NCBI GenBank assembly: GCA_963807225.1
Contig: CAWEAD010000011.1
Location: 31,749 to 95,748 of the forward strand
Reading direction: 5' to 3'
DNA: 64,000 nt
DNA from: an uncultured delta proteobacterium
GTDB lineage: Bacteria > Desulfobacterota > Desulfobulbia > Desulfobulbales > JAGXFP01
This document shows, one piece after another, positions 30,297-32,287 of the stretch. The stretch's first letter is position 1, and each line of letters starts with the position of its first letter. The translations under genes and the position numbers were made by a program. Under the pieces are notes generated by a model that worked only from the letters and a program-made list of their open reading frames with translations, did no database searches and was not told the origin of the DNA.

Positions 30297-30878
30297 TCAG
30301 CCCAGCAACCCGAGCGTCGTTCGGGAAATTCCCAGCAAGTGCTCGGCGGAAGAACCGCCCGCCGCCAGGACCACCAACCCCCAGGTCGTGGCACTGATTG
30401 CCCCGGCCATCGCGGCACAGTCCAGGTTGCGGGCGAATTCCCCCCGGACCACCCCTTCTTCCAAAGCGGTGGTGAGTACCTGTCGCTCCCTGGCAAAGAG
30501 CGACGCCGCCATCTCCTTGGTTTCCTGGTCGTGCTGCTCACCCTCGAAGACGGAAAAGACCACCAGGCAACCGGCCGGGGTTTGCGGATCTGTGAGAATT
30601 CCGATCACCCGGGCATGCCAGCCGGCGATGGCCCCGCGGCTCGTCACCGCAGCTTCGAAAGTTTCGGCCAGGGCCATTTCGATCCGCTTGATGTAAAGAG
30701 AAAAACAGGCCTTAAACAGGGAACGCTTGTTGCCGAAGGCGTTGTAGATGCTGGTCCGCAGCAGCCCAGTGGCCTCCTCCAGGTCCTGCAGGGAAGTGGC
30801 CGAATAACCCTTTTCCCAGAAAAGTTGCATGGCGGTACTCAAAGCCTTCGCCTCGTCAAACCCCTTGCCCCTCGCCAT
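30297..30878 (-). CDS. TetR/AcrR-family regulator
   Basis: MARGKGFD..FWEKGYSATSLQDL..SIYNAFGNKRSLF..GCLV. Confidence 0.92.
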   Translation of the reverse strand: MARGKGFDEAKALSTAMQLFWEKGYSATSLQDLEEATGLLRTSIYNAFGNKRSLFKACFSLYIKRIEMALAETFEAAVTSRGAIAGWHARVIGILTDPQTPAGCLVVFSVFEGEQHDQETKEMAASLFARERQVLTTALEEGVVRGEFARNLDCAAMAGAISATTWGLVVLAAGGSSAEHLLGISRTTLGLLG

Positions 30879-30956
30879 AAGTTGCCCCTCTCGCCTCGCT
30901 CTTGGCCCAGAAATGGATTGACACCTCAGTCGTGACAATTTACCATATCGATATTA

Positions 30957-30968
30957 TACTGATCAGTA
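30957..30968. promoter_or_regulatory. Palindromic operator between divergent tetR and cytochrome genes
   Basis: Perfect 12-bp palindrome TACTGATCAGTA. Confidence 0.55.
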
Positions 30969-31007
30969 CAGTATTGCCACCGTTTTTCACTTTTCAAGGA
31001 GTCCGCG

Positions 31008-31409
31008 ATGCGCCAGCCATTAATTTTACTCGTCGCTGTTTTAGCCGTCTGTTCCTGGGCCCTGCGGGCCGAGGCCAACCCCACGACCAGGTATGACGCC
31101 ACCACCGACAGCTGCCGGGTTCTCGACCACGGTCCTTTGGAATGGGCCAGCCGGCCATACGGCGAGGGCGGCAAGGAGTTCCGGAAGGTATGCCAGGGCT
31201 GCCATTATAAGGGAAACGACAAAGGCGCCCCTTTTCTCTGGACCGAGTCGAAGTCATCCAAAGCCTGGGACCGGGTCTTTGCCGAACGATATCCGAAGTG
31301 CGCCAAAAACGGCTCCTGGGATGTCCTTGATCAAGAGCAAATATTGGAGGTAAACGATTACCTCTATCGCTGGGCCAGGGGCACCTCCGACCCCGGCAAC
31401 GGCTGCTGA
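31008..31409 (+). CDS. Periplasmic monoheme cytochrome c; C-terminus GC-stop or, if recoded, GCUN ending at 31415
   Basis: Signal peptide, CQGCH; ends GGC TGC TGA AAC TGA followed by SECIS-like hairpin 31421-31439. Confidence 0.85.
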   Translation: MRQPLILLVAVLAVCSWALRAEANPTTRYDATTDSCRVLDHGPLEWASRPYGEGGKEFRKVCQGCHYKGNDKGAPFLWTESKSSKAWDRVFAERYPKCAKNGSWDVLDQEQILEVNDYLYRWARGTSDPGNGC

Positions 31410-31588
31410 AACTGATCCCTTTCTCCCGGTCCGGGAGAATCAAACACCAAATCGGCTGAATAAGCACCCTCCCCGCCAGTCGGACCTGTCCGACTGGCCA
31501 GACAGGTCCGACTATCCCCGCCCCCCTTTCCGGGCCTGACCGGAAATGAATACTGGCATCGCCTCCCCTCTACAGTTACATTGCTAAG

Positions 31589-32287
31589 ATGACTTCCAGC
31601 AAATCCCGAAAAGCCGTGATCCTCTTGAGTGGCGGTCTCGACTCCACCACGGTGCTGGCCATTGCTCAGGATCAGGGCTACGACTGCCATTGCCTGAGCT
31701 TCGCTTACGGTCAGCGCCAGGGAATCGAGCTGGAGCGGGCCAAAGAGATTGCCGCTCGGGCCTCCGCCGTCCATCTGGTCCTGCGCCTCGACCTGGACAA
31801 GATCGGCGGCTCGGCTCTGACCTCGGACCAGGAGGTGCCCAAGCACCGTTCCGGCGAAGAGATGGCCGGCCCGATCCCGGCCACCTACGTACCCAGCCGC
31901 AACCTGATCTTCCTGGCCCACGCCGCCGCCTGGGCCGAGGTGCTGGGCACCGGCGAGATCTTCATCGGGGTCAACGCCCTGGACTACAGCGGCTACCCGG
32001 ACTGCCGGCCGGAATTCATCACCGCCTTCGAAAAGCTGCTCAACCTGGGCACCAAAGCCGGCGTGGAGGGCGATTCACCCTTTACCATCCATGCCCCGTT
32101 GCTGCATCTCAACAAGAGCGAAATCATCAAAAAAGGGTTGGCGCTGGGAGTGGATTACCGCCTGACTCACAGCTGCTACGACCCGGGTTCCGGGGGCAGA
32201 GCCTGCGGGGCCTGCGACGCCTGTCTTCTGCGCCTAAAGGGCTTTCGGGAAGCCGGCGCATCCGATCCGCTAGACTACCAGGAGTAA
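31589..32287 (+). CDS. queC: 7-cyano-7-deazaguanine synthase
   Basis: LSGGLDST, TYVPSRN, DYSGYPDCR, SCY, CGACDAC. Confidence 0.97.
   Translation: MTSSKSRKAVILLSGGLDSTTVLAIAQDQGYDCHCLSFAYGQRQGIELERAKEIAARASAVHLVLRLDLDKIGGSALTSDQEVPKHRSGEEMAGPIPATYVPSRNLIFLAHAAAWAEVLGTGEIFIGVNALDYSGYPDCRPEFITAFEKLLNLGTKAGVEGDSPFTIHAPLLHLNKSEIIKKGLALGVDYRLTHSCYDPGSGGRACGACDACLLRLKGFREAGASDPLDYQE

Follow-up and report, generated by a model that had tools for sequence, protein, structure and literature searches.

The DNA analysed here, referred to throughout as the window, is a 64,000-nucleotide stretch of contig CAWEAD010000011.1 (GenBank assembly GCA_963807225.1) from an uncultured member of the Desulfobulbales, and the locus of interest within it is a gene for a small, apparently exported c-type cytochrome, with a divergent TetR-family regulator gene upstream and queC downstream (Table 1). 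Annotation pipelines end the encoded protein at a UGA codon after 133 residues, as anticipated by an earlier note on this sequence, which had proposed that a selenocysteine (Sec) codon is hidden there. The gene indeed closes with GGC (31401), TGC (31404), TGA (31407-31409), AAC (31410) and TGA (31413-31415), as that note had read it, and with the first UGA decoded the mature protein would end in Cys-Sec-Asn, with Sec as the penultimate residue. The comparisons presented below make the protein a high-confidence candidate for the periplasmic monohaem cytochrome c selenoprotein that the note had described, and decoding of the UGA at 31407-31409 as Sec appears very probable on comparative grounds.

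Table 1. Features of the cytochrome locus (positions are those of the window; residues are those of the cytochrome).
Feature	Position	Strand	Basis or remark
TetR-family regulator gene (TetR_N + TetR_C_13)	30297..30938	-	PF00440 4.9e-13, PF16925 4.3e-10
Promoter-like sites and candidate TetR operator	30918..30968	+	TTGACA-17-TACCAT, GTGACA-17-TATACT; operator function putative
Cytochrome gene	31008..31415	+	full span to true stop, UGA read as Sec
Annotated open reading frame, 133 aa, stopping at UGA	31008..31409	+	signal-peptide-like hydrophobic start, one CQGCH
Coding sequence with UGA = Sec, 135 residues, end ...DPGNG-C-U-N	31008..31412	+	
Signal-peptide-like N-terminus	residues 1-23	+	by inspection
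Haem c attachment motif C62-Q-G-C65-H66	31191..31205	+	invariant in 82-row family alignment A2
Cys98 codon, candidate distal haem ligand	31299..31301	+	invariant 82/82; ligand role putative
UGA as Sec (predicted), residue 134	31407..31409	+	TGA in 82/82 homologous and 12/12 metagenome loci
Single sense codon AAC (Asn), then true stop TGA	31410..31415	+	window sequence
Candidate SECIS-type hairpin, 3' untranslated, 8-bp stem, loop GUC, closed by G22/C26	31421..31439	+	

A word-index protein search returned 79 relatives, nearly all of 133 residues and ending in Cys or Cys-Gly, which carry the database names 'hypothetical protein' or 'cytochrome c5' and are cut short by one or two residues. Six-frame profile searches of 401 sampled genomes of the order gave about 300 matches and placed the family in 175 genomes, in 118 of the 266 genomes with a completeness of 90% or more, and in 51 of 83 genera. 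For comparison at the DNA level we assembled the window, two loci from a contig pattern scan (the only two found with the single window protein), the 30 best profile-search loci, 15 loci of five distant genomes and 40 regions picked down the profile-search list; a profile search of the stop-to-stop frames then gave 94 matches, 86 of them distinct, and the 82 that score above 100 bits, spanning 12 families of the order, constitute the family set. A profile search of 1.84 billion representatives yielded only 77 clusters at E ≤ 0.001 (35 at 1e-10). In the ESM Atlas the neighbours are without exception Thermodesulfobacteriota clusters labelled either 'hypothetical protein' or as generic cytochrome c.

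The first in-frame stop is TGA in every one of the 82 distinct loci, and TAA or TAG, which the earlier note held would speak against recoding, occurs at this codon in none. A single sense codon follows in 48 loci and none in 34, and the second stop is TGA in 38, TAA in 36 and TAG in eight. Where a codon intervenes, it is CGC (30), CGT (6) or CGG (4), all Arg, AAC (4), or CAT, TTT, TAT or AAA (once each), and the synonymous changes among the Arg codons indicate that this position is translated. A search with the atypical representative P0096 gave twelve further loci on metagenome contigs, all of which carry the TGA and the hairpin, with TAA directly behind the TGA in 11 and three codons followed by TAG in one. 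As an internal control, six distant paralogues (~27-42 bits) without the hairpin end in TAA (three), TAG (one) and TGA (two), and two further weak paralogues, L057 and the second copy at L060, likewise lack the TGA-hairpin pattern.

The hairpin downstream of the gene, a candidate selenocysteine insertion sequence (SECIS), reads TTCTCCCG-GTC-CGGGAGAA at 31421-31439 and is directly followed by TCAAACACC, so that no T run accompanies it; a scan of 30850-31620 found no terminator-like site, in agreement with the description of an 8-bp hairpin without a U-tract in the earlier note. With the U of UGA as position 1, the count confirms G22 G23 U24 C25 at the loop. The hairpin is the centroid structure of a 76-nucleotide stretch, and its 15-nucleotide core CTCCCGGTCCGGGAG occurs at a single place in the 3.74-Mb genome and is thus no dispersed repeat. 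To put such hairpins on a genome-wide scale, we counted those passing the script's criteria behind open frames of at least 100 codons in the window's genome: they follow 35 of 6394 TGA-ended, 13 of 3974 TAA-ended and 12 of 2513 TAG-ended frames, about 0.5% overall. Among the 35 TGA-ended frames are the two cytochrome copies and two genes for FdhA-type selenoproteins.

Across the family the hairpin is kept throughout. In 80 of the 82 loci the script recovers a stem of 6-13 bp whose loop starts 20-25 nucleotides downstream of the U of UGA, and in the remaining two (L050 and L101), where it chose another stem, the same hairpin is visible by eye. Loops are G|GUC, GGUC, G|GUU, A|GGU and similar, and the stems exchange compensatory pairs (CTCCCG/CGGGAG, CTTCCG/CGGAAG, CCCCCA/TGGGGG, TCGTCT/AGACGA, ACCCCA/TGGGGT). 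In an alignment fitted to a covariance model, and therefore leaning towards structure, 88 cells are changed on both sides against 32.4 ± 4.5 in shuffles, none of 500 shuffles reaching 88, and 78.8% of cells are paired against 69.8% in shuffles of the same alignment. The forms with 4-nucleotide loops stand one column out of register there, so these counts understate the pairing, and sliding by -1 still pairs 71.2%. A covariance model of the UGA and hairpin (R1) re-found the cytochrome family's own sites and gave no match at E ≤ 1 to the FdhA and SelD loci L105-L107 and L113, which makes it family-specific. At the RNA level, metatranscriptome contigs from three libraries of one study, which cannot show transcription or RNA ends, cover parts of 31218-31513; one is identical to the window over 31251-31445, ending six bases past the hairpin, and one from a relative continues beyond the hairpin to 31513.

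The organism appears equipped to use such an element. The window's genome encodes selB (355 bits), selA (620 bits), a tRNA-Sec (70.6 bits) and a selD (341 bits) that itself carries one in-frame TGA and would contain Sec, together with three FdhA-type genes with one in-frame TGA each. All three FdhA-type genes carry G23-U24 in their apical loops, at an offset equal to that of the window hairpin, and one reads G22 G23 U24 C25 exactly like the window; the SelD gene has G24 G25 U26 in its loop. The SECIS of Escherichia coli fdhF likewise presents G23 and U24 in the loop, and a bacterial SECIS can function behind a stop codon, as known from mammalian thioredoxin reductase expressed in E. coli. Action from beyond the stop is also implied by the 'star' selenoprotein families, in the accessible parts of a recent inventory (PMC13188914). 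Taken together, the comparison of sequences indicates that the UGA is under selection as UGA, that the codon behind it is translated and that a SECIS hairpin of the organism's own type lies 3' of it.

The cytochrome gene and selA lie on one contig, 8.5-26 kb apart, in G054:C23, G083:C24 and G122:C4, possibly by chance. Outside the window, three other long TGA-ended frames of the window's genome are followed by SECIS-like hairpins with GGU loops, at G000:C5:78418 (+), G000:C7:237467 (+) and G000:C11:129228 (-), with the sequences GGCCGCC-GGTCT-GGCGGCC, CGGGTCG-GGT-TGGCCCG and GGTCCCG-GTC-CGGGATC, respectively; these may be further selenoprotein genes, known or not.

Whereas the Sec column is invariant in the 82-row alignment A2, the neighbouring Cys shifts or vanishes: Sec is preceded as CU in 34 of the 82 loci, as CxU in 31 and as CxxU in four, and in 13 the three residues before Sec include no Cys. 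The Gly-Cys-Sec arm that the earlier note had compared with thioredoxin reductase is therefore present in the window protein but does not extend to the family, and was rejected as a family trait. In a maximum-likelihood tree of the 82 loci and six non-Sec paralogues, which has few columns for many rows and only a midpoint and an outgroup root, the paralogues separate with full support, the forms ending ...CG-Sec-stop make up a grade next to them, and the X-Sec-Arg forms fall in a derived clade. The 'no Cys' state changes four times on this tree, at least two of the changes being forced by well-supported branches. With adjacency confined to 34 of 82 loci and at least two separate Cys losses, a selenenylsulfide with the neighbouring Cys cannot be the common mechanism. 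A bond between Sec and Cys36 was also considered: Cys36 is replaced by Ser or another residue in the twelve metagenome loci, which keep ...SCG-TGA-TAA and the hairpin, and it is missing from the representatives P0083, P0087 and P0096. Since Sec is retained without Cys36, this bond is ruled out as a general mechanism.

The same tails bear on whether recoding is facultative, the UGA both terminating and encoding Sec, with two working products and the long form made when selenium is available. Stopping at the UGA leaves ...C or ...CG, which would be the ancestral end and is that of the non-Sec paralogues (...PQTCG, ...AKCK), and the CG-Sec-stop forms are the grade nearest to these paralogues under the two roots available; for the 13 of 82 members without a Cys near the end, however, the short form would have no terminal thiol. 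We regard facultative recoding as a possible arrangement, though one with the odds against it.

Several variants illustrate how the tail and the copy number of the family vary. The paralogous, shorter cytochromes c (~105-120 aa; L054, L116-L120) are without the N-terminal hairpin region, have ordinary stops and end in ...DSPSPAKCK or ...PQxCG; their penultimate Cys is likewise conserved, some members having no other free Cys. The metagenome locus L131 (401-800) continues for three residues beyond Sec (...NCYL-U-MLN) to a TAG stop, its hairpin being shifted to match (G24 G25 U26), so that the length of the tail after Sec is not fixed at 0-1. The window's genome holds a second copy on another contig (L065 48-443, G000:C3), a gene that touches the contig start, ends ...EDCG-TGA-TAA and is followed by the hairpin GCTCCCC-GGTC-GGGGAGC. 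The family is multiplied in some genomes (L052 24-2373; L056 825-1899), with two tandem copies behind a TetR and a flavin mononucleotide (FMN) reductase gene in G007, and with eight family matches in G010, two of them tandem, bearing the tails CG-U, FC-U, CFS-U and CA-U.

The protein itself contains one CxxCH only, scores 17 bits (E 0.0077) against Pfam PF13442, under the cut-off of 27, and matches none of the NCBIfam families at E ≤ 1. Invariant in A2 are R28, D30, C36, R37, C62, C65, H66, W87, F91, C98, G102, W104, D117, L119 and the Sec column, and neither of the family alignments A1 and A2 contains a conserved Met or second His as a candidate sixth ligand. Cys98 is kept in all 82 loci and in the twelve metagenome loci, and six of ten distant relatives without a Cys at profile positions 96-100 have a His there. 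In the AlphaFold model (mean pLDDT 84.2), Cys98 lies in a short helix (97-100) ahead of the last helix (109-121), and in class I cytochromes the Met ligand sits in the segment before the last helix. From the lack of a conserved Met or second His, the position of Cys98 and its replacement by His in those six relatives, we tentatively suggest a haem ligated by His66 and Cys98, a specific geometry that we would not hold to be the probable one. Among other matches in the VIA fold comparison are PsbV2 (4lji, Z 4.2), a His/Cys-ligated c-type cytochrome not known to contain Sec, and TsdA (4v2k, Z 3.5), both in the range of chance resemblance, and weak fold matches of this kind neither support nor oppose a His66/Cys98 haem.

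The sixth position could instead be filled by Sec itself, giving a His/selenolate haem c in which Cys98 and Cys36 are structural and the protein serves as an electron carrier or sensor of very low potential rather than a catalyst. Such ligation would account for a family without a conserved Met or second His, in which Sec is the only invariant tail residue, and for non-Sec paralogues that keep a Cys one residue from the C-terminus even where no other free Cys exists. We nevertheless consider it improbable, as Cys98 occupies the place of the class I Met ligand and gives way to His in the six relatives mentioned above, and the tail is modelled with low confidence.

A number of points weigh against the interpretation of the gene as that of a Sec-containing haem enzyme. 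The evidence for Sec decoding is a comparison of sequences, and because the loci are kin, fewer independent observations stand behind the 82 of 82 than the count suggests; a first stop that never varies, set against a second stop that varies freely in the same sequences, is a contrast that holds regardless of independence. Judged by folding energy, the hairpin does not stand out (z = -0.93, with 35 of 200 shuffles folding as well), and this measure is by itself uninformative, so the case for a hairpin beyond chance rests on comparison. With selA in 362 of the 401 genomes of the order, co-occurrence with the family does not discriminate, and in four of the genomes that carry the family (85-93% complete) no selA was matched. 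No homologue has a Cys clearly in the Sec column, as the classical Sec/Cys pair would require: relatives end one residue earlier (...CG stop), and the termini of P0096, P0105 and P0120 are ambiguously aligned at that column. The Cys-Cys termini whose lack the earlier note had counted against its own proposal were likewise not found, which by itself does not refute it. On the structural side, the C-terminal tail of the AlphaFold model has block means of 73 and 59, Foldseek returned nothing at E ≤ 0.001 (all matches listed being cytochrome c domains), and the best VIA fold match is a weak one to 62 residues of the dihaem cytochrome 3u99_A (Z 6.0). Finally, the neighbouring genes vary widely among loci.

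That the UGA is nevertheless an ordinary stop, with the second stop as a back-up tandem terminator and the hairpin as a 3'-end, stabilising or protein-binding element unrelated to SelB, would agree with the 133-residue protein of the pipelines, with the unremarkable folding energy and with the end at 31445 of the window-identical RNA-library contig (a kind of contig that cannot show RNA ends), but is very hard to reconcile with a first stop that is TGA in all 82 and all twelve metagenome loci, against free variation at the second stop and at the stops of the paralogues, with synonymous change in the codon between the stops, with the missing T run and terminator-like sites, with a loop sequence and offset equal to those of the genome's FdhA SECIS elements, and with the relative's contig that extends past the hairpin to 31513.

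We therefore favour, as the likely overall explanation, an exported monohaem cytochrome with UGA-encoded Sec in which haem and selenolate would act together. SelB would bind the 3' untranslated hairpin just past the true stop and deliver Sec-tRNA to the UGA. In the exported protein, haem would be attached to C62 and C65, with H66 and, perhaps, C98 as axial ligands, and the selenolate on the flexible C-terminal tail could reach the distal side of the haem, where it would act as a nucleophile on a substrate in the periplasm, for example a polysulfide, persulfide, disulfide, peroxide or selenium oxyanion. The resulting adduct would be resolved by a thiol close by (the adjacent Cys in members that have one, or else the Cys that ligates the haem) and reduced by electrons arriving through the haem. 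The arrangement would reproduce, with a single haem, the site of His/Cys haem and Sec described for MccSep, a multihaem cytochrome of Geobacter sulfurreducens. By analogy with that enzyme, a conversion of one-electron to two-electron sulfur or chalcogen chemistry, as the earlier note had envisaged, is plausible, and we would put the chance that Sec, coupled to the haem, has a catalytic redox role at even or somewhat below. More speculatively, and with doubts prevailing, the protein may be the smallest natural haem-selenium redox enzyme (12-kDa), with a selenolate on the last or penultimate residue acting on or ligating a His/Cys-type haem, Sec gained by capture of the gene's own UGA stop, and two working products that depend on selenium supply; the capture would have led from an ancestral ...Cys-Gly-stop to ...Cys-Gly-Sec-stop.

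The surroundings of the gene suggest separate regulation. Four promoter-like sites compare with 0.2 expected in shuffles, a perfect 12-bp palindrome, TACTGATCAGTA, lies at 30957-30968, and a similar GTACTGATTAGTAC is found in the intergenic region of L039. For the wider context we compared 150 of 207 open frames from 20 loci with Pfam, the other 57 being those that overlap the cytochrome gene together with the rest of the frames at L024 and L027. A TetR gene of the same type adjoins the cytochrome gene in L018, L038, L039, L042, L047 (divergent) and L052, where it is on the same strand together with an FMN reductase gene and two tandem cytochrome copies; with the window this amounts to seven of 21 loci, so that the control by a divergent TetR put forward in the earlier note finds a recurrent neighbour but no constant partner. 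Elsewhere, an AhpC/TSA-type redoxin gene lies directly upstream of the cytochrome gene (L035, L041), a convergent MsrA-MsrB fusion stands beside it (L042, L047, the latter also with a DsrC-like gene), and genes for DsbH (L064), an AraC/DJ-1 regulator (L059), an extracytoplasmic function sigma factor (L061) and a sigma-54 activator (L053) are found. The cytochrome gene thus looks like a stand-alone, separately regulated gene that often sits by thiol or oxidative-stress genes, a setting that names no substrate, and its expression looks stress-inducible, as it stands alone and is frequently accompanied by a regulator, TetR-type or other, of its own. The stretch 31478-31515, which lies between the cytochrome gene from queC, contains GTCCGACT-like units (CAGTCGGACCTGTCCGACTGG CCAGACAGGTCCGACT) repeated, with overlaps, in both direct and inverted orientation, and the RNA-library contig of a related strain carries a 9-nucleotide insertion (GGTCTGACT) behind 31504.

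The window gene is apparently the founding member of an uncatalogued selenoprotein family that is widespread in the Desulfobulbales. In its accessible parts, the 2026 inventory of prokaryotic selenoproteomes (PMC13188914), with 119 families, includes multihaem cytochromes only, namely ExtKL (NF040886), the GSU2204 family (NF041027) and the octahaem TIGR04315, and the window family is not among the 119 families of its Table 1. The main texts of deep-Sep (PMC12013277) and BSepDB (PMC13326102) do not contain the word 'cytochrome', and in the available portion of the deep-Sep supplements, the four passages covered, out of ten occurrences of the word, concern octahaem and ExtKL proteins. A full-text literature search found no paper on a monohaem Sec cytochrome, although supplements could still mention one. 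As the family lacks an NCBIfam model and is absent from the inventory as far as its accessible parts go, selenoproteome counts for the Desulfobulbales, including relatives of the cable bacteria, would be too low. Moreover, the terminal residues missing from the annotation are the chemically decisive ones, and a family in which Sec is strictly kept while its partner Cys shifts or disappears suggests a route from stop codon to Sec codon.

What is new here is the monohaem cytochrome with a terminal Sec, whereas the recoding machinery and a C-terminal Sec with the SECIS after the stop are known. The SECIS of FdhA shares with the window a hairpin just after the UGA and G23-U24 in the apical loop, but it is translated, unlike the window hairpin, which starts after the true stop. 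Animal thioredoxin reductase ends in Gly-Cys-Sec-Gly, its penultimate Sec standing by a Cys on a flexible tail much as in the Gly-Cys-Sec-Asn of the window protein, which in contrast has no flavoprotein domain and would depend on bacterial SECIS/SelB recoding. The likeness to the His/Cys-ligated TsdA and SoxAX of sulfur metabolism, which have no Sec, would lie in the invariant Cys at the expected distal-ligand site and the lack of a Met or His.

Closer parallels for the tail are the 'star' selenoproteins (KCU-star NF033934, UXX-star NF041114 and NF041211, and SaoC NF040734 with Cys-Cys-COOH), which in the accessible parts of the inventory also have Sec in their last residues, several with a CU motif as in the window protein (PMC13188914). 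In these families as in the window gene, a terminal Sec means that gene callers see a normal stop and that the SECIS must act beyond the coding sequence; their folds as described there are nevertheless unrelated, without haem, and the NCBIfam scan gave no match of the window protein to NF033934, NF041114, NF041211 or NF040734. The closest parallel for the chemistry is MccSep/ExtKL (NF040886), likewise a periplasmic c-type cytochrome carrying Sec, to which the window protein gave no match at E ≤ 1. According to the available part of its description, MccSep has a His/Cys-ligated haem with the catalytic Sec on a mobile loop by the distal pocket, reduces polysulfide and selenite, and is likened by its authors to thioredoxin reductase in its chemistry (bioRxiv 10.1101/2025.11.18.688581). 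It is, however, a tetramer with five haems per subunit, and its Sec is internal (a D-G-U-P loop), which places the SECIS inside the coding sequence, unlike that of the window gene with its one haem, 135 residues and C-terminal Sec. As far as the sources available to us extend, MccSep, dating from 2025, is the single characterised precedent found for haem and Sec in one site, and the 135-residue, one-haem version would offer a far simpler system for the coupling of one-electron haem chemistry to two-electron selenium-sulfur chemistry.

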